Assembly: GCA_913031125.1 (NCBI GenBank)
Contig: CAJWFK010000005.1
Span: 15,671 to 79,670, forward strand
Reading direction: 5' to 3'
DNA from: an uncultured Woeseia sp.
Lineage (GTDB): Bacteria; Pseudomonadota; Gammaproteobacteria; Steroidobacterales; Woeseiaceae
DNA: 64,000 bases
Part shown: positions 44,006 to 61,172 of the stretch, piece after piece
Position numbering within the stretch: the first letter of the stretch is position 1
How the letters are laid out: every line of letters starts with the position of its first letter
The notes under the pieces: generated by a model
Databases searched by the model: none
Told to the model about the DNA's origin: nothing
Seen by the model: only the letters and a program-made list of their open reading frames with translations
Position numbers and translations under genes: made by a program

Positions 44006-45331
44006 ATGGGAAACATAGAGCTTATGGTTAAAAAAATAATGGCGAGACTTCTAATTTTCTGCGCAGCGCCTGTACTGTATGCATGTGACAATGAATCTAA
44101 GCAAAACACGAATACACATGCAGATAAAATCATTGTCCATTGCGGCCTCCTGATAGATGGCTTATCTAATCAGGCCAAGTCTGATCAAACTATTACGATC
44201 CTAGATGGCCGGATCATAGACGTAGCGGACAACATTAAAGCAAACCACACTATCGACCTGTCTGATCTGACTTGTCTGCCCGGGCTAATAGATACACATA
44301 CCCACATTACCGAAGGTCCAAATCTGGCAGATCTTAGCGTTTACTACGACCTGACACTCGAAGAAACGATGGAGGTATCTAGGGTAAACACAGCGATTAC
44401 CCTTGCGGCAGGCTTTACCACTGTAAGAAACCTTGGTGCTTACTATGGGTGGGCGGGGAAAGAATTGCGTCATCGAATTGAGCGAGGAGACTTCCCTGGG
44501 CCACGAATACAGACCGCTGGCTATTATCTTACGATTCCTTCTGGCGGCGGCGATTTAGTTATACCGGGATATCCAGAAGAAAAAATACCTGCTCATGTTC
44601 GATTGGGTGTAGGACGTGGCGCGGAGGATTTTGCAGCAAAAGCAAAAATAGCCGTTGACGGTGGCGCAGACGTCCTAAAGGCTATCGCCTCAGGAGCTGT
44701 ACTTGCATTTGGCGGGGTACCAGGCTCTCCAGAAATGACACAGGAAGAACTTTCTGCAGCAGTTGAAGTGGCGCATGCTGCCAACATTAAGTTAACCGCC
44801 CATGCACATGGTGCCGAATCTATTAAACAAGCGATTCTCGCCGGAGCTGACTCTATCGAGCACGCTTCCCTGGCGGATGATGAGGCCATTACTCTTGCGG
44901 TCGAGAATCGCGTCGCTTTTTCCATGGATATTTATAATGGAGACTATATATCTGCAGTAGGTGAGGAAGAAGGTTGGCCCGAAGAGTTTTTAAGGAAAAA
45001 CGATGAAACAACAGAAGCACAACGACAAACTTTCACTAAAGCGCATGCCGCCGGTGTGCCCATCATTTATGGAACCGATGCCGGCGTTTATCCGCATGGT
45101 CACAACGCGAAACAATTTCGTATCATGGTGGAGCGTGGTATGACGTCAATGGAAGCTATTAAGTCTGCAACGTCTGTTGCAGCCGATTTTATCGGTTGGG
45201 AAGACGCGGTAGGGGCTATAGAACCAGGGCGCTATGGCGACATTATTGCAGTCCGGGGCAATCCGCTTGAGGACATCACAATTCTAGAAAATGTAGAGGT
45301 GGTTATAAAAGGCGGGAAGCGCTTCAACTGA
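44006..45331 (+). CDS. Amidohydrolase-superfamily metallo-hydrolase (COG1228-like), lipoprotein
   Basis: 441 aa. Lipobox LYAC. PGLIDTHTH, HAHG, GTDAG. Paralogue class of the 23565-24938 product. Confidence 0.75.
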   Translation: MGNIELMVKKIMARLLIFCAAPVLYACDNESKQNTNTHADKIIVHCGLLIDGLSNQAKSDQTITILDGRIIDVADNIKANHTIDLSDLTCLPGLIDTHTHITEGPNLADLSVYYDLTLEETMEVSRVNTAITLAAGFTTVRNLGAYYGWAGKELRHRIERGDFPGPRIQTAGYYLTIPSGGGDLVIPGYPEEKIPAHVRLGVGRGAEDFAAKAKIAVDGGADVLKAIASGAVLAFGGVPGSPEMTQEELSAAVEVAHAANIKLTAHAHGAESIKQAILAGADSIEHASLADDEAITLAVENRVAFSMDIYNGDYISAVGEEEGWPEEFLRKNDETTEAQRQTFTKAHAAGVPIIYGTDAGVYPHGHNAKQFRIMVERGMTSMEAIKSATSVAADFIGWEDAVGAIEPGRYGDIIAVRGNPLEDITILENVEVVIKGGKRFN

Positions 45332-45405
45332 TGATTTTGATTATTGAAGCCAAAATAGTGCTGCTGGGTTATTATCTTGGAATCCGTTCAGAGGAATATA
45401 TAAAA

Positions 45406-46395
45406 ATGAAAAAACTACGACTTCTGGCGGCAGCGTCCCTGTTGTGCGCTGCAATCACTATTTCAGCAATTCATCCTTACCGTGCCGAAACTGGCTGGGG
45501 TGATATCGGCCGCGAATGGGGCTCGGTAAGTGCTGTCTATACTACTCCTGAAGGCAATGTTTGGGTGGCGGAAAGATGTGGTGAAAACACGTGCGTCGGG
45601 CATGATGACCTTGATAATGTTTTCCTTTTTGACCCAGACGGCAATCTTCTTAAAAGTTTTGGCGCTGGTCTTTTCACCTGGCCACATGGGATACATGTGG
45701 ATTCAAAGGGTAACGTATGGATCACCGATGCTAGGGGTGATGATGCGGGACGTGGCCACCAGGTTCATAAATTCAGTCCCTCCGGAGAACGACTTATGAG
45801 CCTCGGTAAGGCCGGCAAAGCTGGTTCAGATATGGATGAGTTTAATGGCCCATCGGACGTGTTAGTAGCACCAGATGGCAGTATCTTTGTTGCTGACGGA
45901 CATGGATCCCAAGGCAATAACCGAATCATGAAATTCGATGCTAATGGCAATTTTATTAAAACTTGGGGCGAAACCGGAAAAGAAGATGGCGAATTTAGAG
46001 ATCCACACGCACTGGCGATGGATTCCACTGGCCGTTTATTTGTCGGAGATCGCGGAAATAGCCGAACCCAAATTTTTGATCAAGACGGTAACCACCTGGA
46101 AACCTGGACCCAGTTTGGACGACCAAGTGGCCTATTTATAGATGGCGACGATATCCTGTACGCTGCTGATTCTGAATCAAATGCGACTTGGGGCGCTAAC
46201 CGAGGTTACCTGCGTGGAATTTATATTGGTAGCGCATTTGATGGTTTCGTAATGTTCCATATACCTGACCCTAACCAGGATCCTGATAACGCTAGTACTA
46301 CGGCCGCCGAAGGCGTAGCTGTGGACAAGGACGGTAACATTTACGGTGCTGAAGTTGGACCTCGTCAAATTGTTAAATATATAAAGCGCCGATAA
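45406..46395 (+). CDS. Exported NHL-repeat six-bladed beta-propeller (peptidyl-alpha-hydroxyglycine amidating-lyase-like)
   Basis: Signal peptide MKKLRLLAAASLLCAAITISA. Repeated NHL-like units (…PHGIHVDSKGNVWITD…, …PSDVLVAPDGSIFVADG…, …PHALAMDSTGRLFVGDR…). GAGGAA Shine-Dalgarno before ATG 45406. Confidence 0.65.
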   Translation: MKKLRLLAAASLLCAAITISAIHPYRAETGWGDIGREWGSVSAVYTTPEGNVWVAERCGENTCVGHDDLDNVFLFDPDGNLLKSFGAGLFTWPHGIHVDSKGNVWITDARGDDAGRGHQVHKFSPSGERLMSLGKAGKAGSDMDEFNGPSDVLVAPDGSIFVADGHGSQGNNRIMKFDANGNFIKTWGETGKEDGEFRDPHALAMDSTGRLFVGDRGNSRTQIFDQDGNHLETWTQFGRPSGLFIDGDDILYAADSESNATWGANRGYLRGIYIGSAFDGFVMFHIPDPNQDPDNASTTAAEGVAVDKDGNIYGAEVGPRQIVKYIKRR

Positions 46396-46530
46396 TCATG
46401 GGACGATTGAAGCAGCGTAATCCCTGAGTTTTGGTAAACAGAATATTCTCAAACCAAGTGACTTTTTAGATTTGCTTTTGTATTCCTGTTTCACAATCTG
46501 TGCTAGCGTTGCATATAGTGGAATACACGC

Positions 46531-46559
46531 TTACAAGAGGATCATCTAGACTCTAGAAT
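46531..46559 (+). promoter_or_regulatory. Candidate sigma-70-type promoter of the corrinoid methyltransferase operon
   Basis: TTACAA-N17-TAGAAT in the 259-nt AT-rich gap upstream of 46655. TAGAAT-like -10 boxes also precede other plus-strand genes (16040, 18047, about 30096). Confidence 0.3.
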
Positions 46560-46654
46560 TTTAATAATTAAGTAATAACATTTTTATTTTGACCAAACCG
46601 CGGCATCAGAAAGCGGAATTATTGAAGATACCCTAGGAATAGAAGGATCAAAAA

Positions 46655-47347
46655 ATGTCAGACGAGGAAGACGACATAATACTTGCTGAGCTGCCCGATG
46701 ATGAACTCGTTGAGCAGATGTGGGATGACCTCTATGATGGCCTCGCAGAAGAAATTGCCGAAGGTACTGAGATCCTTTTGGCTCGCGATTGGGAGCCAAA
46801 AAAAGTACTTGATGACGCTCTAGTCGGTGGGATGAACATAGTTGGAGAGGATTTCCGCGACGGGATTTTATTTGTTCCTGAAGTATTGTTGGCAGCAAAT
46901 GCAATGAAAGCTGGGATGGCTATCCTGCGACCTCTTCTTGCGGAAACCGGTGCGAAACCGATTGGCAAAATGGTTATTGGCACGGTCAAAGGAGATATCC
47001 ACGACATAGGGAAAAATCTCGTCGGGATGATGATGGAAGGAGCTGGCTTCGAAGTTATCGATCTTGGAATAAATACTGATGCGGATGCCTATCTGGAGGC
47101 TCTAGAGAAGGAAAAGCCGGAAATTCTCGGAATGTCGGCATTGCTGACAACTACAATGCCATACATGAAGGTTGTAATAGATACGATGAAAGAGCGTGGC
47201 ATTCGCGAAGAATACATAGTGTTGGTTGGTGGTGCTCCGTTAAATGAAGAATTTGGGAGTGCGATTGGAGCTGACGCTTATTGCAGGGACGCAGCAACTG
47301 CCGTTGAAGTAGCCAAGGATTTGGTTACGCAGCGGCGCGCATCTTAA
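46655..47347 (+). CDS. Corrinoid (B12-binding) methyl-carrier protein
   Basis: 230 aa. Helical cap plus Rossmann B12 domain with DxHxxG (GDIHDIGKN), SALLTT, LVGGAPL. Unusually acidic N-terminal extension. GAAGGA Shine-Dalgarno. Confidence 0.9.
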   Translation: MSDEEDDIILAELPDDELVEQMWDDLYDGLAEEIAEGTEILLARDWEPKKVLDDALVGGMNIVGEDFRDGILFVPEVLLAANAMKAGMAILRPLLAETGAKPIGKMVIGTVKGDIHDIGKNLVGMMMEGAGFEVIDLGINTDADAYLEALEKEKPEILGMSALLTTTMPYMKVVIDTMKERGIREEYIVLVGGAPLNEEFGSAIGADAYCRDAATAVEVAKDLVTQRRAS

Positions 47348-47356
47348 ATTGGTACG

Positions 47357-47959
47357 ATGGAAAAAGGCGCTCTGCTTATCGCATGCGGGGCACTTGCCAA
47401 GGAATTGGTTGAGCTGCAACGACGAAACCACTGGAACTTCTTGCGGATCCAGTGCCTTCCGGCCGAACTGCACAACACACCAGAAGAAATTCCTCGTGCC
47501 GTTGAAGAAGTTGTTCAGATTCAAAAAAACAATTTCCAACATATATTTATTGCCTACGCCGACTGTGGAACAGGCGGCAAGCTAGACGAAGTTGTTAACA
47601 AATATGGCCTCCGGCGCATTCCAGGTGCTCACTGCTACGAATTTTTTGCAGGAATATCCATATTTCACGAACTCAGTAATGAAGAAATAGGCACATTTTA
47701 TCTAACCGATTTCCTAGTGCGACACTTTGACCGGTTAGTAGTAGGGAGTCTCGGCTTGGACCGAACCCCAGAATTGAAAAAAATGTATTTTGGGAACTAC
47801 CGGCGGCTAGTCTATTTGGTGCAACAAAAATCGGATGATTTATCGCAAATGGCCCGTGACCACGCAAAATTTCTAGGACTGGAATATATGGAAAAGTACA
47901 CAGGTCTAAAACCGTTTGAAAAAAACCTTAAAGAGCAGGCTATTCAATGGCTAAACTAA
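47357..47959 (+). CDS. DUF1638-family protein (function unknown; associated with corrinoid methyltransferase loci)
   Basis: 200 aa. Assignment by recollection of DUF1638 features (…YADCGTGG…, …YLTDFLVRHFD…) and by operon context. Confidence 0.5.
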   Translation: MEKGALLIACGALAKELVELQRRNHWNFLRIQCLPAELHNTPEEIPRAVEEVVQIQKNNFQHIFIAYADCGTGGKLDEVVNKYGLRRIPGAHCYEFFAGISIFHELSNEEIGTFYLTDFLVRHFDRLVVGSLGLDRTPELKKMYFGNYRRLVYLVQQKSDDLSQMARDHAKFLGLEYMEKYTGLKPFEKNLKEQAIQWLN

Positions 47960-48252
47960 TTAGCATTTACTGGCGGGACATCCCGTCGCATGTGGTTGGG
48001 AAAGCGGGACGTGCTAAAGCGAAAAAAGAGCTAGAACCGCGGTTTGCGAAAGCAATTGATCGCGCTGCAATGCGTGCCGGACGAGGTTCCAGCGACGCAT
48101 ATCTGGCCGACTGGCGACGAGAATCGGAAATCGTCTCTGGCGATCTTGAAGCACTCGTAGCAGAACGCGTAGCAAAATTGGAAAGTGAATTCGACGAGCA
48201 ATATCTGGAATCCGTTGTAAAAGCAGGTGGTCTCATAGGAGAAGTAAAGTAA
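47947..48252 (+). CDS. Small 'virulence factor'-domain protein (function unknown)
   Basis: 101 aa. ISIYWRDIPSHV… N-terminus as I recall for the family found beside pterin-binding/B12 genes. Overlaps the upstream gene by 13 nt. Confidence 0.45.
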   Translation: MAKLISIYWRDIPSHVVGKAGRAKAKKELEPRFAKAIDRAAMRAGRGSSDAYLADWRRESEIVSGDLEALVAERVAKLESEFDEQYLESVVKAGGLIGEVK

Positions 48253-49155
48253 ATGACTCACACGATCATAAGTTCGGCTAATAAGGACGTAATCATCGGA
48301 TTCGATCGTCCTTTCGTTGTCATCGGCGAGCGAATTAATCCGACCGGACGAAAACTACTGTCGGAAGAAATGAAAAATGGTGACTATAGCCGTGTCCAGT
48401 CAGATGCACTTGCTCAGGTAGAAGCCGGTGCACATGTTTTGGATGTGAACGCCGGCATCCCGCTCACTGATGAGCCAGCGATCCTCGCCGATTGTGTTCA
48501 GTTACTGCAATCCATCACAGATGTACCTCTATCTATTGATTCCTCAATTGTTGAGGCACTAGAAGCTGGTCTTAAAGTCTATCAAGGCAAAGCGTTGCTC
48601 AATTCAGTAACAGGCGAAGAAGAACGCCTAGAGCGCGTATTACCTTTAGTGAAGAAATATGACTGTGCCGTGGTAGCAATATCCAATGATGATACGGGTA
48701 TATCAGAAGACCCTGACGTTCGCTTTAATGTGGCAAAGAAAATCGTGGAGCGGGCAAGCGATCATGGCATTCCTTCAAGTAATATTGTCGTAGACCCGCT
48801 CGTCATGCCTATCGGGGCTATTAACACTGCAGGCCAACAGGTAATGCAGATCGTCAAGCGCCTTCGCAAAGAGTTGAGAGTCAATACTACTTGCGGTGCA
48901 TCAAACCTGAGCTTCGGCTTGCCTAATCGGAATGGCTTAAATTCAGCATTCATAAGCATGGCAATCAGTGCCGGGATGACGTCTGCAATTACCAATCCGC
49001 TACATAAAGAACTAATGCAAGCGGTTCGAGGCGCCAACGTAGTAATGGGAAATGATCCTGAATGTACCCAGTGGATCCGTAACTACCGTGACCCTCAATC
49101 CGCCCAATCATCCAGGGCCGGCCAGCGTCGTCGTCGTCGTCGAGCCAATAGGTAG
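48253..49155 (+). CDS. Methyltetrahydrofolate:corrinoid methyltransferase (pterin-binding, MtgA/AcsE/MetH-domain-like)
   Basis: 300 aa. DHPS-like TIM barrel blocks GERINPTG, LDVNAG, LNSVTGE, GASNLSFGLP. C-terminal QRRRRRRANR tail. Confidence 0.85.
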   Translation: MTHTIISSANKDVIIGFDRPFVVIGERINPTGRKLLSEEMKNGDYSRVQSDALAQVEAGAHVLDVNAGIPLTDEPAILADCVQLLQSITDVPLSIDSSIVEALEAGLKVYQGKALLNSVTGEEERLERVLPLVKKYDCAVVAISNDDTGISEDPDVRFNVAKKIVERASDHGIPSSNIVVDPLVMPIGAINTAGQQVMQIVKRLRKELRVNTTCGASNLSFGLPNRNGLNSAFISMAISAGMTSAITNPLHKELMQAVRGANVVMGNDPECTQWIRNYRDPQSAQSSRAGQRRRRRRANR

Positions 49156-49157
49156 CT

Positions 49158-51158
49158 ATGTCCGCGATAAATGATCCCCTTATAGTATTTTCGCCGTCTG
49201 GAAAACGCGGTCGTTTCCCGTTAGGAACACCAGTACTAGAGGCTGCACGACGCCTAGGTGTAGATATTGACTCTGTCTGCGGCGGTCGCGCACTTTGTGG
49301 CCGATGCCAAATTACTGTAGCGGAAGGCGAATTACCAAAACACGGTATTGTCTCAAGTACGGATAATTTGTCGCTCACCGGTGAAGCAGAAGCAAGACAT
49401 CGGGAAAAGCGAGGTCTAGGTAGCGATCGGCGCCTTAGTTGCCAGGCGACGCTGCAGGGAGATATCGCAATCGATGTCCCGGAATCCAGCCAGGTACATA
49501 GGCAGGTCGTTCGCAAACCTCATGAAGCGCATGACATCGATGTTAACCCAGTCACTCACGCTTATTATGTGGTGGTAGACAAACCGGATATGCACGACCC
49601 CAGTGGGGACCTCGAACGATTGCGCATGGCCTTAGCAAGGGACTTTGAGCTTGAAGATTTAGGAGTAGATTTCTCCGCTTTACAACGACTGCAAGAAACC
49701 ATGCGAAAAGGGGATTGGAAGATCACCGCGGCTGTTCGTGATGCACGAAACATCATTGCTGTATTTCCTGGGTTTCAAGAACGCTTTTATGGCGTAGCTA
49801 TCGATGTTGGTTCAACCACAATTGCCGCTCACCTTTGCGATCTAACCAGTGGGCGAGTTTTGGGAAGTGCCGGACGTATGAACCCTCAAATCCGTTTTGG
49901 TGAGGATCTAATGAGTAGGGTGTCATACACCATGATGAACCCGGGCGGTGATCGGGAGCTAACTTCAGTAGTCAGAGAAGCAATTAACGAGCTTATCAGC
50001 CAAGTGGCTGCAGACTGTAAGATTGATACTAACCTTATTGTCGAGGTAACAATCGTTGGAAATCCTATAATGCAACACCTCGTGCTGGGTATTAACCCGA
50101 TAGAACTAGGCACAGCGCCCTTTGCCCTAGCTTCAGACCGCTCAGTTAGTCAGCCTGCACGAGATATTGGAATTTCAATTAATCCCGGGGGCTTTGTGTA
50201 CGCGTTACCCTGTATTGCGGGTCACGTGGGCGCTGATACGGCAGGTGTTTTGCTTGCCGAGGCACCTTTCAAGCGGGACGAAGTTTCGCTCATTGTCGAC
50301 GTCGGAACCAATGCGGAAATATTACTAGGAAACCGAGAGCGGTTACTTGCTGCTTCGAGCCCCACTGGCCCGGCCTTCGAAGGTGCTCAAATAAGCGCTG
50401 GCCAGAGGGCTGCTCCGGGTGCAATCGAGAGGGTCCGGGTTGACCACACGACGTTAGAACCCAAGTTTAAGGTCATAGGTTGCGATCTCTGGTCTGATGA
50501 AGCGGCCTTTGAAGATGGGCTACCGTCCTCTGGTGTCACGGGCATTTGCGGCTCCGGCATCATCGAAGTCGTCGCGGAACTCTACCTGGCTGGAGTAATT
50601 CAGCACGACGGTATAATTGCCGGAGATGCTAAAAAACGGTCAGACCGAATTAAAACTGATGGCCGAACGTTTAGCTACACATTGTTCGATGGGGAACCCG
50701 CAGTAACGATCCACCAAAATGATGTCAGGGCGATTCAGCTTGCTAAAGCAGCACTCTATGCGGGCGCGCGTCTGTTAATGGAAAAATTAGGTGTCGATAC
50801 AGTCGATCGAATCCGTCTCGCGGGCGCATTCGGCGCCCATATAGATGTCAAATACGCGATGGTCTTAGGTTTGATTCCAGATTGTGCAATCGATCAAGTT
50901 TCTTCAGCCGGCAACGCGGCAGGAACAGGGGCAAGAATCGCTCTTCTCGACAGGACCTCCCGCCAGTTGATTGACCAGCAAACCCGAAAAGTCGAAAAAA
51001 TCGAGACCGCGGTAGAAGATAGATTTCAACACCATTTCGTGTCAGCAATGGCAATTCCGCATGACACAGATCCCTTTTCTAACCTGAAGGAAGAAGTAGG
51101 CCTTCCCGAACGCAAAAGAACTATCAAGACGAGCAAAAAACGCAGGAGAAGTCGATGA
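49158..51158 (+). CDS. RACo-type reductive activator of corrinoid proteins (N-terminal [2Fe-2S] ferredoxin plus ASKHA ATPase domain)
   Basis: 666 aa. Plant-type ferredoxin cysteines (CGGRALCGRC…C). ASKHA phosphate motifs (AIDVGSTT, VDVGTNAE). C-terminal KKRRRSR tail. Confidence 0.8.
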   Translation: MSAINDPLIVFSPSGKRGRFPLGTPVLEAARRLGVDIDSVCGGRALCGRCQITVAEGELPKHGIVSSTDNLSLTGEAEARHREKRGLGSDRRLSCQATLQGDIAIDVPESSQVHRQVVRKPHEAHDIDVNPVTHAYYVVVDKPDMHDPSGDLERLRMALARDFELEDLGVDFSALQRLQETMRKGDWKITAAVRDARNIIAVFPGFQERFYGVAIDVGSTTIAAHLCDLTSGRVLGSAGRMNPQIRFGEDLMSRVSYTMMNPGGDRELTSVVREAINELISQVAADCKIDTNLIVEVTIVGNPIMQHLVLGINPIELGTAPFALASDRSVSQPARDIGISINPGGFVYALPCIAGHVGADTAGVLLAEAPFKRDEVSLIVDVGTNAEILLGNRERLLAASSPTGPAFEGAQISAGQRAAPGAIERVRVDHTTLEPKFKVIGCDLWSDEAAFEDGLPSSGVTGICGSGIIEVVAELYLAGVIQHDGIIAGDAKKRSDRIKTDGRTFSYTLFDGEPAVTIHQNDVRAIQLAKAALYAGARLLMEKLGVDTVDRIRLAGAFGAHIDVKYAMVLGLIPDCAIDQVSSAGNAAGTGARIALLDRTSRQLIDQQTRKVEKIETAVEDRFQHHFVSAMAIPHDTDPFSNLKEEVGLPERKRTIKTSKKRRRSR

Positions 51159-52009
51159 GAACAACCACGACATCTCAAATGAATAACCATGAGCTCATTA
51201 ATGATTTGCGTGAGGCTTATATGGAGGTCATTCCAACGCCAAATATTGAGGAAAAACTTAGAATTCTACAACCGGACTCATATGTTGCCGTAACATGTTC
51301 ACCAACTAAAGGAGTTGATGAAACACTCGATCTTTCCGAAAGGTTAGTCGACCAGGGATTTAGGGTTGCCCCGCATATTGCAGCCAAATGCGTACGTAAT
51401 GAAACGCACCTAAGCCATATTATGCAGAAGCTTGATGCTTTGAAAATTGACAGCATATTCGTTCCCGGTGGCGATCGTGCCGAGCCGCTAGGGGATTTCG
51501 ATACAGCCTTCGAACTGCTTAAAGCAATTAACAATTTTGACCATGGCCTTAAAGAAATCGGTATTGCTGCTCACCCAGAAGGACATCCCGATATCGCTGA
51601 CGAAATGCTCCTAAAGGAGCTAGAGAAAAAAAAGAATCTAGCCCAGTACATCGTCACACAAATGTGCTTTGATGCCGATGCTTTAGGCAAATGGTTGGTG
51701 GATATAAGCAGGCGCGGGATAAAGCTGCCGGTGTGGATTGGGTTACCAGGTGCTATAGAACGAACCCGATTGTTTAAGACTTCTCTCAGAATCGGCGTTG
51801 GCGACTCGCTACGCTTTCTGCGTAAAAAATCAGTCGTGGCCGCCGAGCTCATGAAATCTAGTGTCTACCGTCCAGATGATTTGGTAACCGATATTGCTCA
51901 GTATAAAAATGTAGCTGATACAAATATTGCCGGCTACCACATTTTCTGTTTCAACCAGGTTGAGAGTACGGAGAAATGGCGCAATGAAACAATTGCGCGA
52001 TTGCAATGA
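51155..52009 (+). CDS. metF: Methylenetetrahydrofolate reductase
   Basis: 284 aa. MTHFR-like blocks (VAVTCSPTKG, VAPHIAAK, IFVPGGD, AAHPEGHP, VTQMCFD). 4-nt overlaps at both ends. Confidence 0.8.
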   Translation: MRTTTTSQMNNHELINDLREAYMEVIPTPNIEEKLRILQPDSYVAVTCSPTKGVDETLDLSERLVDQGFRVAPHIAAKCVRNETHLSHIMQKLDALKIDSIFVPGGDRAEPLGDFDTAFELLKAINNFDHGLKEIGIAAHPEGHPDIADEMLLKELEKKKNLAQYIVTQMCFDADALGKWLVDISRRGIKLPVWIGLPGAIERTRLFKTSLRIGVGDSLRFLRKKSVVAAELMKSSVYRPDDLVTDIAQYKNVADTNIAGYHIFCFNQVESTEKWRNETIARLQ

Positions 52010-53523
52010 CTCGACGAGGAACCCGACAGCGACGTATTGCGGGCGCAATTAAACAGCTGCCCTGGCAAAAAGTAAGAAACCCATGGGCGCCAGTTGACGT
52101 GTTATGTGAAGACTCTGTAGAAATAATTTTGAATGCAGCGTTAGATATTCTGCAGGAACAAGGGTTTCGATTTCTGCATGACGAGAGCAGGCATCTTCTT
52201 GAAAGTGCTGGTGCTAACGCCGCAAATGATGATGGTATGACAAGACTGGACCGTGATTTCGTCTTGGAAAATATCGAAAGCGCACCATCAAGTTTCCAGC
52301 TACTGGCACGAAATCCCAAGCATTCGCTGGATGTCGGTGGTAACAACATTATTTTCTCTTCAATCGGTGGCCCTGCTTTTGTAAGTGATATGGATAATGG
52401 CCGGAGAGCAGGGACATACAAGGATCTGTGCGACTATTTTCGCGTAATTCAGGGCCTGAACATCATTCATCAGGAAGGGGGCGGTTGTTTTGAGCCAATG
52501 GATCTTCCCCCCGAATCCCGTCATCTAGACCTTTATTTTGCTCAACTGACGCTACTGGACAAAAACGCCCAAGCCTATGCACTTGGTCGCGAACGCACCA
52601 TTGACTGTCTCGAGATGACCGGTATTGCTTTAGGCAAAGACAGGGAAGAACTTACCGAGCAACCCGCAATACTTGCAATCATAAATACTAACTCTCCAAT
52701 GCAACTTGATGTGCCGATGTCAGAGGCTGTATTAGAACTCGCTGCCGCTAATCAAGTCTGCTGCATTACACCGTTTACGTTAGCTGGATCCATGAGCCCA
52801 GCGACCCTTGCCGGGACGCTCGCTCAGCAAACAGCCGAGGTACTTGCCGTAGTAACACTTACCCAAATTGTGCGTACCGGGGCACCCGTAATGTATGGTG
52901 CATTTGCTTCCAACGTTGATATGCAAAGTGGTGCACCGGCACTCGGCACGCCAGAATACGCGAAGATGGCACTCGCGAGCGCACAGATTTCACGGCGGCT
53001 TAGGCTGCCATTTCGGTCAAGCAACACAACAACCTCAAACACGGTCGATGTGCAAGCTGCTTATGAAGGCGGCATGTCATTGTGGAGTGCCATCCTAGGC
53101 CACACCAATTTGGTAAACCATGCTGCTGGCTGGCTGGAAGGAGGGCTGACCGCATCATTTGAAAAACTAATCATGGATGCGGAAATGCTGCAAATGATGG
53201 CAGCTACATTGCAACAACTCGTGGTCAATACTGAAGAACTTGCCCTCGAAGCAATCGCTGAAGTCCCGCCGGGCGGGCATCATTTTGGTACCGCACATAC
53301 GCTGGAACGTTATGAAAACGCCTTTTATTCGCCGATTCTTTCGAGCCGTCAGAACTTCGAAGCATGGCAAGAAGATGGCTGTAAAGATGCGACAGAGCGG
53401 GCGAATATAATATGGAAGCAGCTACTATCCGAATATGAACAGCCATTTATTGAGCCATCTGTAGAGGAAGCACTCCGCAGTTATATAGACAAACGCAAAA
53501 CTACAATAGACAAAATGATGTAA
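52006..53523 (+). CDS. MttB-superfamily (trimethylamine methyltransferase-like) methyltransferase, non-pyrrolysine, paralogue 1
   Basis: 505 aa uninterrupted ORF. Arg-rich N-terminus (MTRRGTRQRR…) and EDSVEIILNAALDILQEQG opening, typical of proteobacterial MttB homologues as I recall. Confidence 0.8.
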   Translation: MTRRGTRQRRIAGAIKQLPWQKVRNPWAPVDVLCEDSVEIILNAALDILQEQGFRFLHDESRHLLESAGANAANDDGMTRLDRDFVLENIESAPSSFQLLARNPKHSLDVGGNNIIFSSIGGPAFVSDMDNGRRAGTYKDLCDYFRVIQGLNIIHQEGGGCFEPMDLPPESRHLDLYFAQLTLLDKNAQAYALGRERTIDCLEMTGIALGKDREELTEQPAILAIINTNSPMQLDVPMSEAVLELAAANQVCCITPFTLAGSMSPATLAGTLAQQTAEVLAVVTLTQIVRTGAPVMYGAFASNVDMQSGAPALGTPEYAKMALASAQISRRLRLPFRSSNTTTSNTVDVQAAYEGGMSLWSAILGHTNLVNHAAGWLEGGLTASFEKLIMDAEMLQMMAATLQQLVVNTEELALEAIAEVPPGGHHFGTAHTLERYENAFYSPILSSRQNFEAWQEDGCKDATERANIIWKQLLSEYEQPFIEPSVEEALRSYIDKRKTTIDKMM

Positions 53524-53535
53524 AAGGCTAAATCC

Positions 53536-55071
53536 ATGCGCCCTAACTTAACAGTCCTAAGTAACCAACAAATCAACAAGATTCTCGATGAAGCCAAGCG
53601 AATAATGGCCGAGGTCGGCATGGAAATACGGGGTGAACCGTTAAGGAGGCGTTTACTCGATCATGGCCTAAAAGCCGATAAGAATACCAAACGGATTCTG
53701 TTTCCGACCGAGATTGTCGATAAAGCTATTACCGATGCTCCGTCTGCGTTTACGCTCTTTGATCGAGATGGTAATCCATACACCGAAATTGGTGGAAACA
53801 ATGTGCACTATGTTCCGGGTTCGAGTGGCCTGAAGATTCTTGATCACAGAACCGGGGAAACTCGTCTTGCAGATTCGACCGATTTCATAGAATACGCTCG
53901 TCTTTGTGATGGTTTGGAAAACATCGCCTACCTAGCTACAGCATTCTCAACAAATAGGGATATCGAGTCGCAAGTATCGGATGCCTGGCGACTCTACATG
54001 ACCCTGACAACCTCAAAAAAACCCGTTGTTTCGGGCGCTTTCAGTGAACATGGCACTCCCCGCATGGTGGATATGATGCAAATGTTCAGGGAAGACCGCG
54101 CTGATTTAATTGCCAAGCCCATGTCTATATTCACAATAACGGCCACAGGCAATTTCCGCTATGGGGAGGATTCCTGCCAGAATCTTCTGGACTGCGTTGA
54201 AGCGGGAATACCAATCGAAATTGTGCCTGTGACTCTAATGGGCCTTATAGCGCCAGTTACACTTGTCGGCGCACTTGTTTTTCACTGTGTGGACGTACTA
54301 ACCGGAATCACTATGGCCCAAGTTATAAAACCGGGAGCACCAGTATTATTTGGAGGAGCACCAGCTACATTCCATATGAAAGCCGCGAGTTCTCCGATGG
54401 CAGCAATAGAAACCCAACACCTCAATGTAGCGTACATTGCCGTTGCTAAATCGCTTAATTTACCAACTCAAGCATACATGGCTTTGTCTGATGGAAAATT
54501 CATCGATGCGCAGGCTGGTGGTGAAACTTTTTCAAGTGCGCTGCTTGCTGCCATTGCCGGAGTAAATTCAGTATCAGGCCCCGGTATGCTCGATTTTGTT
54601 TTAACATTTAGTCTGCCAAAATTAGTTTTCGACAATGAAATATGCGGTCAATCACTACATTTTGTTCGTGAAATTGACATTATCGATGACCTGCCGACGG
54701 GGGAACTAGTCAGTGACTTGATGAAAGATGACCACCTGATTACCAGCCCTCACACACTCCAGCACTGGCCAAAAGAACTTTATCTGACACAACCGGTGAT
54801 CGACCGAGAGAATCGGGAAAGCTGGGAAAAAGCAGGGAGCAGGACACTAGAACAGCGTGCTACTGAAGAGGTGGAAAAACGATTAAGTGAATATCAGCCG
54901 ATAGAAACAGATTCGGAAATCGATAAAGCTATGCGTGATCTCATAACTAGTGGTTTCGAGAGTCAAGAGACGCTGCCAGAATTACCTCCACCACCAGAGC
55001 CAAAAACTACCAGTGCCCCAGCCCGCAAGAGAGGCCGCAAAATGCGCAAGAGGAGCAGGTCCGTAAAATAG
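53536..55071 (+). CDS. MttB-superfamily methyltransferase, non-pyrrolysine, paralogue 2 (divergent)
   Basis: 511 aa uninterrupted [27 protein letters not shown] opening and TIM-barrel-length body align loosely with paralogue 1. Pro-rich linker plus [16 protein letters not shown] tail. Confidence 0.75.
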
Positions 55072-55099: not shown

Positions 55100-56041
55100 C
55101 TATCGAGCTTGAGAAACTAAACATCGCTTGATTGCACGAATATCTGCTGGGGAGGTTCGGCAGCACCCGCCGATGAATTTTGCCCCTGCTTTAAACCAAG
55201 CCTCTACGTTAAAATCATTTTCCAAATCGCATGATGTGCCAGACCAACTATTGTCTTCCGTGTGATAAGTTTCACCTGAGTTCGGATATACAACGACTAG
55301 CTTATCTGTTGCGCCAGTGCGAACTTCATCAATCAAAGGCAAAATAAACGCTGGGGACGTACAGTTAATACCAACGGCATGCACACGGCGATGTCCGTCA
55401 AATAAGCGAGCAACATCCCGCAACATTGAACCATCACTGATTTTGAGTTCATCTCGGCAGGCAAATGAAATCCACGCCGGTGTTGACATTTTTTCCAATA
55501 GACCGCATAAAATTTCTGCTTCACGAAAATTCGGAATAGTTTCTACCGCTAAGACATCAGCACCGCTGGCATCAAATACCTTGAGTCGTGATAAGTGAAA
55601 TTCTGTGAGCGCCTCATCTGAAATATCGTAATCTCCAGTATATTCCGAACCATCATGCATCGTTGCACCATAAGGTCCGACACTTGCAGCAACGATCGGG
55701 TGTATTTCGGGAGGATAAATACTACTTTCAAGATATTCCGCACAAGCAGTCTGAGATAATTTTACGGCGCTTAAAATTAACTGGTCAGCCTCTTCAGTAC
55801 TATAGCCAAGCGATATAAATCCTGCACGACTTGCCTGATAGCTAGCACTAATGATGATTTCAGCACCAGCACTTAAGTAAGCATAATGTGCGTCAATAAT
55901 CGCTTGTGGATCACTAATCAATAATGCGGCAGACCATAAATCACCAGCGATATCATGCCCCATGGACTCTAACTGAGTCGCAAATCCTCCATCCAGAATA
56001 ACCGGGCCATCGCGTTCTATTAATTGTTCAAATTTCGTCAT
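55100..56041 (-). CDS. mmuM: Homocysteine S-methyltransferase
   Basis: ILDGGFATQLE N-terminal block, Zn-Cys motifs (…INCTSP…, GGCCRTSP). Start set at ATG 56041; the longer ORF would overlap the upstream gene. Confidence 0.85.
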   Translation of the reverse strand: MTKFEQLIERDGPVILDGGFATQLESMGHDIAGDLWSAALLISDPQAIIDAHYAYLSAGAEIIISASYQASRAGFISLGYSTEEADQLILSAVKLSQTACAEYLESSIYPPEIHPIVAASVGPYGATMHDGSEYTGDYDISDEALTEFHLSRLKVFDASGADVLAVETIPNFREAEILCGLLEKMSTPAWISFACRDELKISDGSMLRDVARLFDGHRRVHAVGINCTSPAFILPLIDEVRTGATDKLVVVYPNSGETYHTEDNSWSGTSCDLENDFNVEAWFKAGAKFIGGCCRTSPADIRAIKRCLVSQAR

Positions 56042-56069
56042 GATCTTGGCATTTGAAGCATGGCAATGG

Positions 56070-56447
56070 TCAGGTAGTCTCTGGCCACTGACCAAGAATT
56101 CGCCCGTCTTCAAATTTAGCCCCTATAAATCCCCCTGCGTTTGAGCCATCCCGCATTGGATTAAATCGGATTGTAATCACGTCCCCTGGTTGTAAAGAGT
56201 GCGGACGCCATCCTTCACGAAACAGACTGTTCGGCCCTCGGCCCTCTATACTCCATAGGTCAACTGTTCGACTATTAGTCAAAATGGAAATTTCTATCCA
56301 GACGTGCGGATTGGCCCATTGAAATTCGATGACTGTTACTTTCTTTTCAATCACAGAGCTTTTATCGAACATCGCACTTGAATGATGCGCCATGACATTA
56401 CAAGTAATAATCATCAGGAAAAACAATGTGCCGATAACCTTTGTCAC
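56070..56447 (-). CDS. DUF6152-like small exported protein
   Basis: 125 aa. The signal peptide ends …VMA/HHSSAMFD. WANPHVW block matches my recollection of DUF6152. GTG start overlaps the upstream TGA (GTGA). Confidence 0.5.
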   Translation of the reverse strand: MTKVIGTLFFLMIITCNVMAHHSSAMFDKSSVIEKKVTVIEFQWANPHVWIEISILTNSRTVDLWSIEGRGPNSLFREGWRPHSLQPGDVITIRFNPMRDGSNAGGFIGAKFEDGRILGQWPETT

Positions 56448-57232
56448 TGGTCAACCACCTTATCGATGATCTGCCCCGCCGTATCTAAGGTAAGGGTTTG
56501 ACCGGCACCAGTAACAGGATTGCGATTATTTTCAGCACAGGCGTAATCATATGCCTTAGCACCCTGCGGCAAGCGTGTGAAATGACGCACAACATGCCAC
56601 GGCGCAGTCAGTGCTAAAGGATCATTAATCTCTAATTCAGCTTTCAATAGACCATCAGCAATTAAATACATTCTGGTTTTTACCTTGGCCTCGCTACTTA
56701 GGAATAACCCACTGCGATCAAGAATAGTTTTACCCCCACCAACCATATTGACAGTAGAAAACTCAAGCACCTCACCATTCCAGTTTCCTACAGAGTCCCC
56801 AGTATATGTAAGCCATCGGTCTTGTGGTGCTGGGTGTGACCGACCATCGGTATAAATTCTGAGGATGTTTGGGCCATTTTCCGTAATCACCCATGTTTGC
56901 TCAGGACGAACTACAAATTCGAACACATCTGGCAATGCTAAAAGCCTTGGAAAACCCGCCGGTGTCCCGCATCGGGAAATCGGGTCTGGTAACCGGCCCT
57001 TGGCTGCAAGCTCCAAGCTTGCTAGATATTTTTTTTCCCACAAATCCGTCAGTGGCGGATATTGCCGCACACCTTCTTCACCGGCTAAACCATCTTTCGG
57101 TTTGGTAGTGGCTAAATCGAACATGCCACCATTGCCTTCTACTCGCCCCCATACGCCACTCCAATCGGGTAATTCCTCCGCATTAAGCGTAAGAACCAGC
57201 GCAAAAATAAAGCATATCGGTATTAGTCTCAT
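56444..57232 (-). CDS. Exported hypothetical protein (partner of the DUF6152-like gene)
   Basis: 262 aa, signal peptide, no catalytic motif recognised. Confidence 0.5.
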   Translation of the reverse strand: MRLIPICFIFALVLTLNAEELPDWSGVWGRVEGNGGMFDLATTKPKDGLAGEEGVRQYPPLTDLWEKKYLASLELAAKGRLPDPISRCGTPAGFPRLLALPDVFEFVVRPEQTWVITENGPNILRIYTDGRSHPAPQDRWLTYTGDSVGNWNGEVLEFSTVNMVGGGKTILDRSGLFLSSEAKVKTRMYLIADGLLKAELEINDPLALTAPWHVVRHFTRLPQGAKAYDYACAENNRNPVTGAGQTLTLDTAGQIIDKVVDQ

Positions 57233-57951: not shown

Positions 57952-59124
57952 ATGATTTCAATGTTTATTAGCCACAACAAAAATTTTGTAAGAAAAATCC
58001 TGTGTGCCGTGACAGCCTCGCTATTGATCTCATTCAGGGGAGCCGCAGCAATTGAAATTACTGAACCGTTTAAGGTCGGTACCTTTGACATTGCGGGGTC
58101 AACACGTATTGGAATTGTCCTTCGCGACAGCATCGTTGTGGAAATCAGCGAAGCAAACAAGGTCCTCGAAAAAAAAGCAGCTTACCCTCATGTGCCAATG
58201 CCAGAAAATATGATTGCACTTATTGACCGTTACGAAGACGACCTAAAGGGCCGGCTATATGAAATCGTGAATGTCCATGTCACCCAAGGTCTTCTAGATG
58301 GCCAGCGTCCAGCTTATGTGCATCAAGTAAGTGACGTGCAAACCCGACCTCCAATCATGTACCCCGGGAAAATTTTGAATGCAGCAGTAAACTTTTACAG
58401 CCATGTTGACGAATCCGGTTCTGAGGAAGAAAGAAAAAAGGCAAGAGAACTGAGACGAGATGAGCGCGGGGTCCCCTACCTATTCCTTAAACCCAGTCGC
58501 GGTGCCGTAATAGGTGACGGAGAGCCCGTTGTCATACCGTACGGGCGTGATCGAACAGACTGGGAAGTTGAACTAGGTGCCGTTATTGGTAAAACCGCAA
58601 AATATGTTTCTGCGAATGAAGCAGAAGACCACGTATTCGGGTATATGGTAACGATGGACATATCCGATCGGGGTGGCCGGCCACCGGGCGGTGCGCCGTT
58701 TAGTAGCGATTGGTTTGTCGGAAAAGGTCACGATACATTTGCACCACAAGGACCGTGGATCGTTCCTAAAGAATTCTATGGTAACCCGATGGAAATGCTG
58801 CGCCAGTCACTCAAGATCGGTGACGAACAAATGCAGGAAGCGACTGCCGGTGACATGATCCATTCTCTTTGGGAGTTAATCGAATATGGATCATCTATAA
58901 TGACTTTGTATCCAGGAGATGTGCTTAACAATGGTACGTCTGGTGGAGTAGGAATGGGCACTGCTGTTCGCGGAAAACAACGTTTCCTCCAGCCTGGTGA
59001 GATTGTAAGCGCAACAATTGATGGAATCGGAACGCTGACACATCCGGTAATTGCTGAAGCCAAGCCAGAAGGTCTAACCGGCGCTGAATTACCGCCAGTG
59101 AACACTTACAGGGAGCCCTTATGA
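57952..59124 (+). CDS. Fumarylacetoacetate hydrolase (FAH)-family protein with N-terminal signal-like segment
   Basis: 390 aa. Hydrophobic leader …ILCAVTASLLISFRGAAA/IE. FAH-domain blocks (PYLFLKP, WEVELGAVIGK, FGYMVTMDISDRG, PGDVLNNGTSGGVG). Confidence 0.75.
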   Translation: MISMFISHNKNFVRKILCAVTASLLISFRGAAAIEITEPFKVGTFDIAGSTRIGIVLRDSIVVEISEANKVLEKKAAYPHVPMPENMIALIDRYEDDLKGRLYEIVNVHVTQGLLDGQRPAYVHQVSDVQTRPPIMYPGKILNAAVNFYSHVDESGSEEERKKARELRRDERGVPYLFLKPSRGAVIGDGEPVVIPYGRDRTDWEVELGAVIGKTAKYVSANEAEDHVFGYMVTMDISDRGGRPPGGAPFSSDWFVGKGHDTFAPQGPWIVPKEFYGNPMEMLRQSLKIGDEQMQEATAGDMIHSLWELIEYGSSIMTLYPGDVLNNGTSGGVGMGTAVRGKQRFLQPGEIVSATIDGIGTLTHPVIAEAKPEGLTGAELPPVNTYREPL

Positions 59125-61172
59125 ATAAAACTAGCAGGTTTCCAATCTTATCTTTGTGCCTTTTATTTCCCGTCACCCTTCTCGGCCAGGCAAATATTAC
59201 CGAGGAGCGCATGCTTGCGGAATCAGGCAGTGGTGAGAACTGGTTCGTCCAGGGAGGTAACTTTCGCGGCGAACATTACTCGCCCCTGGATCAAGTCAAC
59301 GATGGCAACGTGAGTGAACTGGGGCTCACCTGGGTAACTGACCTGCCAATGAAAGACGGTACACCCACTACCCCAATCATTGTTGATGGCGTTATATATC
59401 TTGGAGGTGCTTATTCAATAGTTGCTGCGATCGATGCAAAAAACGGGGATATCCTGTGGACGTATGAAGCAAGCATGGAGAATACATTTTCAGAAGGACT
59501 CTCATGGATCGCCCGCGCTAATCGTGGTGTTGCGGTATGGGATGGACGCGTGTTTGCAACAGCAGCAGATTGCCGCCTCATAGCACTGGACGCCAAAACC
59601 GGGAAAGAACAGTGGACCGTGCAGACCTGTGATACCGAGGCCGGCTACTCCATCTCAGATTCCCCCTATGTCGGCGGCGGTAAAATTTATCTGGGCAACG
59701 CCGGCTCAGAATCTCGAGAAAATAACCGCGGCTATGTTGATGCCTATGATCCGGATACCGGCAAACTCATCTGGCGCTTCTACATTGTGCCAAGCCACAT
59801 TCCTGAGGAAAACGACACACCCGCATTAAAGATGGCAGCTAAAACCTGGACTGGCGATACTCTTGAAACGGTTGGTGGTGGCGGCAACAACTGGAACGAG
59901 ATGACCTATGATCCAGCATCTAACCAACTTTTTTTCGGCACATCGGGTTCAGCAAATTACGAACACCATACCCGCAGCCCAGACGGTGGTGACAACCTTT
60001 TCCTGTCATCGATCATTGCGGTTAACGCAGACACCGGCGAATACAACTGGCATTACCAGACGGTTGATAAAGACAGCTGGGATTACAACGCAACCATGAA
60101 CATTATCCTCGCCGATCTAACTATCAAGGGCGAGAACCGCGAGAGCGTATTAATCGCACCAAAGAACGGTTTTCACTATGCCCTTGACCGACACACAGGT
60201 GGGCTTCTAACCGCCGGTAAATATGCAAAAGTTAACTGGGCAACCCATATCAACATGGAAACAGGTCGTCCTTCATATGACCCAGCGGCAGAGTTTTGGA
60301 ATGTCCCAGATGGCGAAACAATATATTTCTGGCCTAATGGTTGGGGTGCGCATGGCTGGAATCCGATGGCCTATCATCCAGGACTGCGCTTATCCTATAT
60401 ACCGGCCATCGACCTACCGAGCTCAGTCGATGACCAGGGAAATAGCGAAGATGTCGTTTTTCTGACTGAAGTTGATGGCAAACCGCATGCACCAGGAAAA
60501 CTGGTTGCCTTTGATCCTGAAACTCAAAGCATTCGCTGGTCAGTTGATCACGCGCTGCCCTACAACGGCGGCCTAATGACTACTGGTGGAAATCTGGTTT
60601 TCCAGGGAAATGCCGAAGGAAATTTTGTAGCCTACGCCGCTGACTCGGGCGAGGAACTCTGGTCAGTGCAAACCGGGTCAGCGATTAATGCTGCCCCTGC
60701 AAGTTATTCTATTGACGGTGACCAATACATTCTGGTTCCGATTGGAGCCAGCGGCGGACTGCAATTTCGTTACCCACGTATGCATGCTGCAGATAGAGCT
60801 AAGGGCCCGGTTAAACTTATGGCCTTCTCAATAGGCGGAGATACCAATCCCCCCGTTTCATATGTTGGCTATCCTGAACTTCCGGACCAACCAGCACTGG
60901 ATGCATCAGATGAATCGATAACGATGGGTGCCGCTTATTACGGTTACTACTGCACAAGCTGCCACGGTAAAGACGGTATCGCACGATTTAATGGGTCAGT
61001 CCCGGATCTCCGCTATAGTGATAGTGAGATTCATTCTACGTGGCATGGAATCGTCGTTGGTGGTGCAAAAGCATCTAATGGCATGCCACGCATAGATATT
61101 TCAGTTGAGGAATCAGAAACAATCAGAAATTACATATTGTCACTATCAGAAGAGATTCGTGGCAGCAATTAA
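59121..61172 (+). CDS. Quinohemoprotein PQQ-dependent dehydrogenase (type-II alcohol dehydrogenase architecture)
   Basis: 683 aa with a signal peptide. Eight-bladed PQQ propeller blocks (…NWFVQGGNFRGEHYSPL…, repeated W motifs). C-terminal cytochrome c domain CTSCH…NGMP. ATGA overlap with the FAH gene. Confidence 0.85.
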   Translation: MNKTSRFPILSLCLLFPVTLLGQANITEERMLAESGSGENWFVQGGNFRGEHYSPLDQVNDGNVSELGLTWVTDLPMKDGTPTTPIIVDGVIYLGGAYSIVAAIDAKNGDILWTYEASMENTFSEGLSWIARANRGVAVWDGRVFATAADCRLIALDAKTGKEQWTVQTCDTEAGYSISDSPYVGGGKIYLGNAGSESRENNRGYVDAYDPDTGKLIWRFYIVPSHIPEENDTPALKMAAKTWTGDTLETVGGGGNNWNEMTYDPASNQLFFGTSGSANYEHHTRSPDGGDNLFLSSIIAVNADTGEYNWHYQTVDKDSWDYNATMNIILADLTIKGENRESVLIAPKNGFHYALDRHTGGLLTAGKYAKVNWATHINMETGRPSYDPAAEFWNVPDGETIYFWPNGWGAHGWNPMAYHPGLRLSYIPAIDLPSSVDDQGNSEDVVFLTEVDGKPHAPGKLVAFDPETQSIRWSVDHALPYNGGLMTTGGNLVFQGNAEGNFVAYAADSGEELWSVQTGSAINAAPASYSIDGDQYILVPIGASGGLQFRYPRMHAADRAKGPVKLMAFSIGGDTNPPVSYVGYPELPDQPALDASDESITMGAAYYGYYCTSCHGKDGIARFNGSVPDLRYSDSEIHSTWHGIVVGGAKASNGMPRIDISVEESETIRNYILSLSEEIRGSN

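Follow-up and report, generated by a model that had tools for sequence, protein, structure and literature searches.

Cobalamin (B12)-dependent demethylation in an aerobic host has been described in Ruegeria pomeroyi DSS-3 (Mausz et al., PNAS 2025, PMC12478193), where MtgC, MtgD, PF06253 proteins (MtgB), a RamA-like activase, a DUF1638 protein and MetF2 are induced on glycine betaine, choline and carnitine, and where mtgC and mtgD mutants lose both glycine betaine catabolism and methionine prototrophy. The same work reported that these genes are often co-located, and even operonic, in marine Alpha-, Gamma- and Deltaproteobacteria and that one mtgC may be accompanied by as many as seven PF06253 paralogues, and its authors suggested that several methylated substrates are used. 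A related set of parts is known from the split methionine synthase (split MetH) of Phaeobacter inhibens (Price et al. 2018, PMC5764234), for which fitness genetics tie a RamA-like protein and DUF1638 to B12 reactivation, mutants of both being methionine auxotrophs. Here, we analyze an eight-gene operon of an uncultured marine-sediment Woeseia sp. from the family Woeseiaceae, which lies in a stretch of 64,000 nucleotides (GCA_913031125.1, contig CAJWFK010000005.1, positions 15,671 to 79,670) that was studied as a whole and is called the window below. It is likely that this locus is an MtgBCD-type cobalamin-dependent methyl-transfer operon of an aerobic or facultative Woeseia. The kind of system is already known; what is new is the host family, Woeseiaceae, which is mentioned neither in PMC12478193 nor in PMC5764234.

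Gene content and conservation of the operon

The operon comprises eight open reading frames (ORFs), all on the plus strand between positions 46655 and 55071 (Table 1), with spacings of +9, -13, 0, +2, -4, -4 and +12 nt calculated from the ORF coordinates. These values agree with the ORF coordinates and the range of gaps, from -13 to +12 nt, given in an initial annotation of the window, and are typical of a real, translationally coupled operon. The proteins of the window were searched with Pfam and NCBIfam profiles, the curated NCBIfam cut-offs serving as the threshold. Pfam recovered every one of the eight domain calls made in the initial annotation. In the NCBIfam search, the pterin-binding protein MtgD exceeded a curated cut-off for methyl-THF:corrinoid methyltransferases (NF005719, 376 bits against 259), while no equivalog cut-off was reached by the corrinoid protein, the activase, MetF or either of the MttB proteins.

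Table 1. Features of the methyl-transfer operon and its immediate surroundings (positions in the window).
Feature	Coordinates	Strand	Length (aa)	Supporting match
Likely operon promoter region, two sigma-70-like matches	46490..46559	+		10/12 and 9/12; within the 259-nt gap 5' of the first gene
MtgC-like corrinoid (B12) carrier	46655..47347	+	230	Pfam B12-binding_2 64 bits, B12-binding 91 bits
DUF1638 protein	47357..47959	+	200	Pfam PF07796 95 bits
PF13769 'Virulence_fact' protein	47947..48252	+	101	Pfam 65 bits
MtgD-like methyl-corrinoid:tetrahydrofolate methyltransferase (MT-II, pterin-binding TIM barrel)	48253..49155	+	300	Pfam Pterin_bind 108 bits
RACo/RamA-like ATP-dependent reductive activase	49158..51158	+	666	Pfam Fer2, RACo_linker, Raco_middle, RACo_C_ter
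MetF2-like divergent methylenetetrahydrofolate reductase	51155..52009	+	284	Pfam MTHFR 46.6 bits, weak, residues 42-196 only
MttB1, non-Pyl MttB-family MT-I, clade B1	52006..53523	+	505	Pfam MTTB 594 bits
MttB2, non-Pyl MttB-family MT-I, clade B2	53536..55071	+	511	Pfam MTTB 251 bits
Rfam PYLIS_3 (mttB pyrrolysine insertion sequence) match within MttB2	54484..54583	+		44 bits; gathering score 38
Homocysteine S-methyltransferase (MmuM/YagD type), convergent	55100..56113	-		Pfam S-methyl_trans 242 bits; ends 28 nt past the MttB2 stop

The same order of eight genes, together with the flanking genes, is found on a near-identical contig (locus L063; 424 kb) of a Tara Oceans Woeseia metagenome-assembled genome (MAG), GCA_002720595.1. 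The nearest relatives are Woeseiaceae MAGs, and synteny counts made by tblastn across related loci placed the full set of eight genes in the Woeseiaceae genome loci L003, L005, L007, L017, L022 and L036 and in the metagenome contigs L070, L087, L103, L111, L140 and others. Since the order recurs in L063 and in this many Woeseiaceae genome and metagenome loci, the arrangement is not a product of chance.

The scheme that we propose takes its flow direction, activities and substrates from the homologous systems, while gene content, domain identity, conservation, pocket signatures and fusions were observed directly. MttB1 and MttB2 would act as independent, substrate-specific first methyltransferases (MT-I), each with a TIM-barrel pocket that would hold a methylated onium compound and present one methyl group to the Co(I) of the shared MtgC, which would thereby become CH3-Co(III). 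MtgD, the second methyltransferase (MT-II), would then pass the methyl group from MtgC to tetrahydrofolate (THF) in a reversible step, and MetF2 would turn the resulting CH3-THF into CH2-THF, from which C1 oxidation and assimilation could proceed. Whenever Co(I) is oxidized to inactive Co(II), the RACo/RamA-like [2Fe-2S]-ASKHA activase would restore Co(I) with ATP, and the DUF1638 and PF13769 proteins would be accessories of this reactivation module.

The flow of methyl groups from the substrate through CH3-Co(III) and CH3-THF to CH2-THF was already proposed in the initial annotation, and it is backed by the domain searches and by the genetically validated aerobic marine system (PMC12478193). 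The annotation regarded the operon as an O2-independent B12 route in an aerobe. Both aerobic-type genes to which it pointed, one for a PQQ dehydrogenase (59121-61172) and one for a cytochrome c (31927-32808), are real and the route is sound, but it is not new: B12-dependent demethylation in an aerobe, operonic forms and multiple PF06253 paralogues included, was published in 2025 (PMC12478193), and the main interest of that claim was therefore already established. The link to methionine synthesis and the convergent homocysteine S-methyltransferase gene adjoining the operon were absent from the initial annotation.

Comparison with the Ruegeria and Phaeobacter systems

The operon has the same set of components by family as the MtgBCD(E) system of R. 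pomeroyi, including non-Pyl PF06253 MT-I proteins, i.e., members that lack pyrrolysine (Pyl), and the two also have in common an aerobic host and several PF06253 paralogues per corrinoid protein. This likeness is one of component families rather than of proteins compared individually with SPO2160, SPO1863, SPO2108 and SPO2134. Unlike the R. pomeroyi parts, which are scattered, the Woeseia parts form one tight eight-gene operon, in which a PF13769 gene, not discussed in the R. pomeroyi paper, is an integral member. The nearby homocysteine methyltransferase is MmuM-type and not Bhmt/MtgE-type, and there are no adjacent dimethylglycine (DMG) or sarcosine genes and no adjacent transporter gene.

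With P. inhibens split MetH, the operon shares a B12-binding protein, a pterin-binding protein, a RamA-like Fer2+DUF4445 (RACo) activase and DUF1638, whose gene is directly downstream of the B12-binding gene in both. The P. inhibens system, however, was defined by methionine auxotrophy and no MT-I was described for it, whereas the Woeseia operon embeds two MT-I genes and MetF2, and the homocysteine-binding subunit at this locus is of a different subtype and encoded on the opposite strand.

This likeness raises the question of whether the operon serves first of all as a split B12-dependent methionine synthase of the Phaeobacter kind, in which the flow would be anabolic, with MtgD loading MtgC with methyl from CH3-THF and a homocysteine-binding subunit forming methionine, and the MttB proteins would be accessories. 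MtgC and MtgD as well as the RamA-like protein and DUF1638 are the very parts of split MetH (PMC5764234), the R. pomeroyi MtgC and MtgD function in either direction (PMC12478193), a homocysteine S-methyltransferase gene is found 28 nt downstream of the operon, and a Bhmt/MtgE-type gene stands beside the MttB pair in Halieaceae-like loci. We nevertheless consider a primarily anabolic operon unlikely: it includes, in translational coupling, two MT-I genes and an oxidative-type MetF2, and the adjoining homocysteine methyltransferase, encoded on the opposite strand, is MmuM-type, matching the model PRK09485 with 356 bits (cut-off 215) and the Bhmt/MtgE-type model PRK07534 with only 69 bits. The methionine synthase reading complements that of a demethylation operon, since both roles coexist in the published system. 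The homocysteine methyltransferase gene lies downstream of the operon in several Woeseiaceae loci and is a possible outlet to methionine synthesis.

Pockets and family tree of the two MttB proteins

In the initial annotation, the two MttB paralogues were described as only distantly similar to each other and as non-Pyl members of the family. Both statements are correct: MttB1 and MttB2 share 25% identity over 474 residues, both ORFs are free of in-frame TAG codons, and the Pyl position is occupied by Leu (TTG) in MttB2 and deleted in MttB1. The best matches of MttB1 in the Protein Data Bank (PDB) are 4YYC (353 bits) and MtgB (9YCE, 296 bits), while MttB2 is as close to MtgB (181 bits) as to Pyl-MttB (177 bits).

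The active site of Desulfitobacterium hafniense MtgB was defined by structure and mutagenesis (PMC13080624). Y97 and F356 make cation-pi contacts, while the carboxylate of glycine betaine is bound by R312 and H348; a change of Y97 or F356 to a non-aromatic residue raises the Km several-hundred-fold. R312 is kept in all characterized non-Pyl members, the substrates of which are all acidic quaternary amines (PMC13080624, PMC12155760). We aligned 62 MttB-family ORFs of related loci with MtgB, Pyl-MttB and 4YYC. The ORFs fall into two clades, B1 (n = 24) and B2 (n = 38), each of which has its own signature at the substrate-binding positions (Table 2).

Table 2. Clade signatures of the MttB proteins in MtgB numbering (each residue listed is 100% conserved inside its clade).
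MtgB position	Clade B1	Clade B2
97	G	S
312	R	Q
317 (Pyl position)	deleted	L
348	H	S
350	W, invariant	not a signature position
356	G	V

The carboxylate clamp formed by R312 and H348 is thus kept in MttB1 and its clade (24 orthologues) and replaced in MttB2 and its clade (38 orthologues), and the aromatic cation-pi pair is missing from both proteins. In keeping with this, MttB1 shares with D. hafniense MtgB (2QNE/9YCE, PMC13080624) the fold and the family PF06253, is 34% identical to it and retains R312 and H348, but differs in its Gly residues at 97 and 356 and in its invariant Trp350. MttB2 is 27% identical to MtgB and lacks all four residues (S, Q, S and V instead). The D. hafniense enzyme also differs in its setting, with an anaerobic host and with partners, MtgC and MtgA, that come from other lineages.

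We read MttB1 as an acidic-quaternary-amine enzyme of a clade of its own, its most likely substrate being glycine betaine or a bulkier betaine. According to the JBC paper, the clamp is kept and the aromatic pair lost in the enzymes acting on proline betaine, carnitine, butyrobetaine and phosphocholine. Since the same pattern is seen in MttB1, glycine betaine is possible as its substrate, yet it is not implied.

The pocket of MttB2, by contrast, appears to fit no characterized member, and judging from the alignment its donor would be different from that of MttB1 and would not be held by the canonical Arg/His carboxylate clamp. Clade B2 is spread over Woeseiaceae, Steroidobacteraceae, Halieaceae-like Gammaproteobacteria and Caldilineaceae/Chloroflexota. 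A neighbor-joining tree separated B1, MtgB and 4YYC from B2 and Pyl-MttB in 100 of 100 bootstraps, with B1 and B2 each monophyletic; its references were the three structural sequences (MtgB, Pyl-MttB and 4YYC), rebuilt from HMMER alignments. Counted by exclusive positions, MttB2 has 26 in common with Pyl-MttB and 13 with the non-Pyl references.

Does this placement make the MttB proteins true trimethylamine (TMA) methyltransferases and the operon a TMA-demethylating one? JGI and NCBI label homologues 'trimethylamine--corrinoid protein Co-methyltransferase', MttB2 is on the same side of the tree as Pyl-MttB of Methanosarcina barkeri (7XCL, PMC9842639), and the coding sequence of MttB2 is recognized by the mttB PYLIS model. 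However, the Pyl adduct is thought to be necessary for TMA activation (PMC9842639), and MttB2, which is 28% identical to Pyl-MttB and gives a gap-free alignment with it through the 348 region, has a Leu codon in place of pyrrolysine (position 334 of Pyl-MttB) and Ser at all three Pyl-activating positions (G110, T111 and Y364). There is no in-frame UAG in MttB1 either, where the Pyl position is deleted, the two proteins score 284 and 302 bits against the TIGR02369 cut-off of 525, and the window is without tRNA genes of any kind. Demethylation of TMA by this operon is therefore extremely improbable, and the interpretation of both proteins as non-Pyl MT-I enzymes is preferred.

The PYLIS_3 match begins exactly at the Pyl-equivalent codon TTG (Leu317) of MttB2, which has no UAG, and is also present in four MttB2 orthologues (L003, L008, L013 and L016). 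It appears to reflect coding homology to Pyl-mttB rather than an RNA element, and this fits the tree, in which MttB2 is on the Pyl-MttB side. The idea of a relic recoding element was ruled out: the match is one of primary sequence, several pairs of the model are non-canonical, and the Leu codon is synonymously variable across the clade.

Occurrence of MttB1 and MttB2 together and apart

The two MT-I genes are frequently, though not always, found as a pair. Seen from the MttB1 side, MttB2 follows directly in 49 of the 62 loci with enough downstream sequence, and MttB1 stands alone in the other 13. From the MttB2 side, most gammaproteobacterial loci are tandem pairs, while complete operons with MttB2 and without MttB1 occur in L010, L016, L031, L035 and L013, and the Chloroflexota loci have MttB2 alone. 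At the loci with MttB2 but without MttB1, the neighbors (MatE, a deaminase, GGDEF/EAL, a glycyl-radical enzyme, glucokinase and an SNF symporter) were uninformative as to substrate.

These counts bear on the possibility that MttB1 and MttB2 are obligate partners in a heteromer with a single substrate, with, e.g., one protein being catalytic and the other supplying the C-terminal dimerization loop that completes the active site. MttB-family enzymes are indeed dimers in which each C-terminal extension lines the cavity of the partner (PMC13080624, PMC9842639), and the two genes are only 12 nt apart, the tandem being kept in the 49 loci and in most of the gammaproteobacterial loci seen from the MttB2 side. 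Yet the 13 loci in which MttB1 has no adjacent MttB2, the five complete operons and all the Chloroflexota loci in which MttB2 has no MttB1, and the fully invariant but different pockets of the two clades, as expected of two active enzymes, make such a heteromer very unlikely. Two independent substrate modules on one carrier are favored instead, because pairing is frequent but non-obligate and because there are two different invariant pockets. The initial annotation had likewise argued for two substrates feeding one carrier; this claim is supported, although not proven, by the distinct 100%-conserved pockets, the separate occurrence and the opposite sides of the tree.

The genes that accompany the MttB proteins in relatives fit methylated-amine or betaine catabolism, while none of them is present in the window. 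In five loci of the Halieaceae/Pseudomonadales type (L008, L009, L011, L024 and L146), the MttB pair is flanked by a Bhmt/MtgE-type homocysteine methyltransferase (PRK07534, 411 bits), an Oxidored_FMN + Pyr_redox_2 flavoprotein, an SSF symporter and a BCCT transporter. In L087 (9996-13755), a full operon is joined, through an overlap at the MttB2 stop codon, to a gene of the trimethylamine/histamine-dehydrogenase family (about 600 bits to histamine dehydrogenase) and then to an amino-acid permease gene, an arrangement that points to an oxidative fate of the demethylated amine. Two further distant MttB paralogues adjoin the same MtgC in L096, L100, L104, L105 and L116.

An alternative architecture was noticed in these last five loci and in L120 and L121 (e.g., L104:3287-13900). 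Here, two extra MttB genes (about 25% identical) come first, then MtgC, MttB1 and MttB2, and after these, on the opposite strand, RACo, MtgD, PF13769 and DUF1638, so that four MT-I genes surround one corrinoid protein. Gammaproteobacterial-type operons or MttB pairs were also seen on contigs filed as Nitrosopumilus sp. (L012), Klebsiella pneumoniae (L059) and Spirochaetales (L033) MAGs, which are probably mis-binned or mislabelled.

MetF2

The MetF2 gene is parted from mtgD by the activase gene alone. The best solved relative of its product is S6MTHFR (7XG9; 108 bits), whereas canonical bacterial methylenetetrahydrofolate reductases (MTHFRs) give about 19 bits. S6MTHFR, from Sphingobium lignivorans SYK-6, is the founding type 4 MTHFR; enzymes of this type oxidize CH3-THF in coupling with THF-dependent demethylases and are unable to use NADH (PMC11868366). 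It is encoded beside a demethylase that produces CH3-THF, as MetF2 is, and the role expected of both is to oxidize CH3-THF. The closeness of MetF2 to S6MTHFR thus supports the step from CH3-THF to CH2-THF, and we predict that MetF2 works in the oxidative direction.

Residues 34-94 of MetF2 gave a 54-bit phmmer match to the de novo designed toroid repeat protein 6XR1 (dTor_9x57R), which is presumably spurious or compositional. A second divergent MTHFR-like gene (63331-64000, minus strand; Pfam MTHFR 38 bits, profile positions 94-286) continues beyond the window's last nucleotide and adjoins a TPR-sulfotransferase gene.

The corrinoid carrier and its reactivation

The corrinoid protein consists of a cap domain and a Rossmann B12-binding domain, the latter with the DxHxxG motif present as 'GDIHDIG', and its best NCBIfam matches are MtgC-type, all of them under the curated cut-offs (208 bits against 370). 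The activase has the full RACo/RamA domain set: an N-terminal [2Fe-2S] ferredoxin domain with four Cys residues (C41, C47, C50 and C95), a linker, a middle domain and a C-terminal ASKHA ATPase domain (294 bits). Its NCBIfam match is AcsV-like, with 400 bits under a cut-off of 800.

The two small proteins encoded between the carrier and MtgD were left as undefined components by the initial annotation. DUF1638 was already tied genetically to B12 reactivation: in Phaeobacter, the loss of DUF1638 gives an auxotrophy that methionine rescues, and DUF1638 and RamA-like proteins co-distribute (PMC5764234). The Woeseia protein, with invariant C10, C70, C93, H39 and H92, would accordingly be an accessory of corrinoid reductive reactivation. 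It has no sequence relative in the PDB, and its AlphaFold2 (AF2) model (pLDDT 74) gave no functional lead in a Foldseek search against the PDB, which returned only generic two-lobed alpha/beta proteins (ATCase, periplasmic binding proteins and CobK) with TM values of 0.25-0.33.

The PF13769 protein is the product of a real gene under strong constraint: 43 positions, including the core 'DRAAMRAGRGSSDAY' and 'DWRR', are invariant across 34 homologues, and the protein is 99% identical to an annotated one in the Tara Oceans Woeseia sp. MAG (GCA_002720595.1). The family is of modest size, counting 752 representative clusters, whose members are mostly standalone proteins of about 100 aa. In other organisms, however, PF13769 is found fused to DUF1638 (DUF1638+PF13769, P0361) and, as PF13769+Fer2+RACo_linker (P0322), N-terminal to a RACo-type activase. 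Because of these fusions and of its fixed place between DUF1638 and MtgD, which is kept in most related loci, we infer that the PF13769 protein belongs to the reactivation module. No sequence relative of it was found in the PDB, and the pLDDT of its AF2 model (57) is too low for a fold search. PF13769 is mentioned neither in Mausz 2025 (PMC12478193) nor in Price 2018 (PMC5764234) nor in the other literature searched.

Taken jointly, the two least familiar proteins of the operon allow a further reading, which we offer as tentative and consider possible rather than probable. MttB2 would represent a widespread, unrecognized non-Pyl subfamily that demethylates a donor other than an acidic quaternary amine, and PF13769 would be an unrecognized third reactivation subunit beside the RamA-like activase and DUF1638. 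As for MttB2, it would descend from the Pyl-MttB side and would have lost the Arg/His clamp of every characterized non-Pyl member; candidate donors would include free choline, other onium compounds with a neutral tail and sulfonium compounds.

Points that weigh against the proposed scheme

Several observations speak against the scheme or against parts of it. In MetF2, the residues that define type 4 MTHFRs and block the binding of NADH are mostly lost (L48S, R78C, F215T, C219I and PFGGL to CFNQV), only P49 and F269 being kept; MetF2 would therefore form a separate subgroup, for which the direction of the reaction and the electron acceptor are argued from relatedness only. In MttB2, which has invariant residues of its own (R152, H250, H280 and several aromatics), R152, H250 and H280 could build an alternative acid-binding site.

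The window itself contains no transporter gene, no regulator gene and no genes for downstream demethylation of DMG or sarcosine, and the physiological substrate is therefore not anchored locally. The initial annotation had noted that no transporter or regulator is encoded alongside the operon, and none is found within about 10 kb on either side of it. Finally, the PF02574 protein of the window is MmuM-type and not MtgE-type (Bhmt-like, of the S. meliloti Bhmt type), and the link to methionine in the published model is therefore not demonstrated at this locus. It should be noted that mtgE is often not co-located (PMC12478193), and an MtgE-type gene may be present elsewhere in the Woeseia genome.

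Surroundings of the operon

The two sigma-70-like matches that mark the likely promoter region are weak, as the whole upstream region is no richer in such matches than its shuffles, and neither a cobalamin riboswitch nor any other Rfam family was detected in 46300-46750. Directly upstream of the operon (44006-46395, plus strand) are genes of an amidohydrolase and an NHL-repeat beta-propeller protein, and the NHL gene holds the same position in several Woeseiaceae loci (also in L002, L003, L070, L076 and L077). On the downstream side, a minus-strand run (55100-57232) consists of a 262-aa ORF without a Pfam or NCBIfam match (56444-57232), a DUF6152 protein gene (56070-56447) and, as the last member, the homocysteine methyltransferase gene, for which the start annotated in the sister MAG contig L063 gives a protein of 313 aa (55100-56041). 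The trio is also present in L063, and the DUF6152 gene and the 262-aa ORF are also present in L003.

Implications

The operon is a clean natural minimal set for in vitro reconstitution, with eight genes, one carrier and two MT-I enzymes. The MttB2 pocket that is free of the acid clamp and the contribution of DUF1638 and PF13769 to RamA-type reactivation would be informative beyond Woeseia.

The Woeseiaceae (JTB255 group) are among the most abundant bacteria of marine sediments. If members of this family carry a complete and compact MtgBCD-type operon, B12-dependent demethylation of osmolytes, recently recognized in the pelagic groups Roseobacter, SAR116, SAR324 and SUP05, extends into the benthos, and with it comes an added demand for cobalamin there. 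If the joint reading of MttB2 and PF13769 is true as well, B12-dependent demethylation in oxic marine sediments would reach a new class of substrates.

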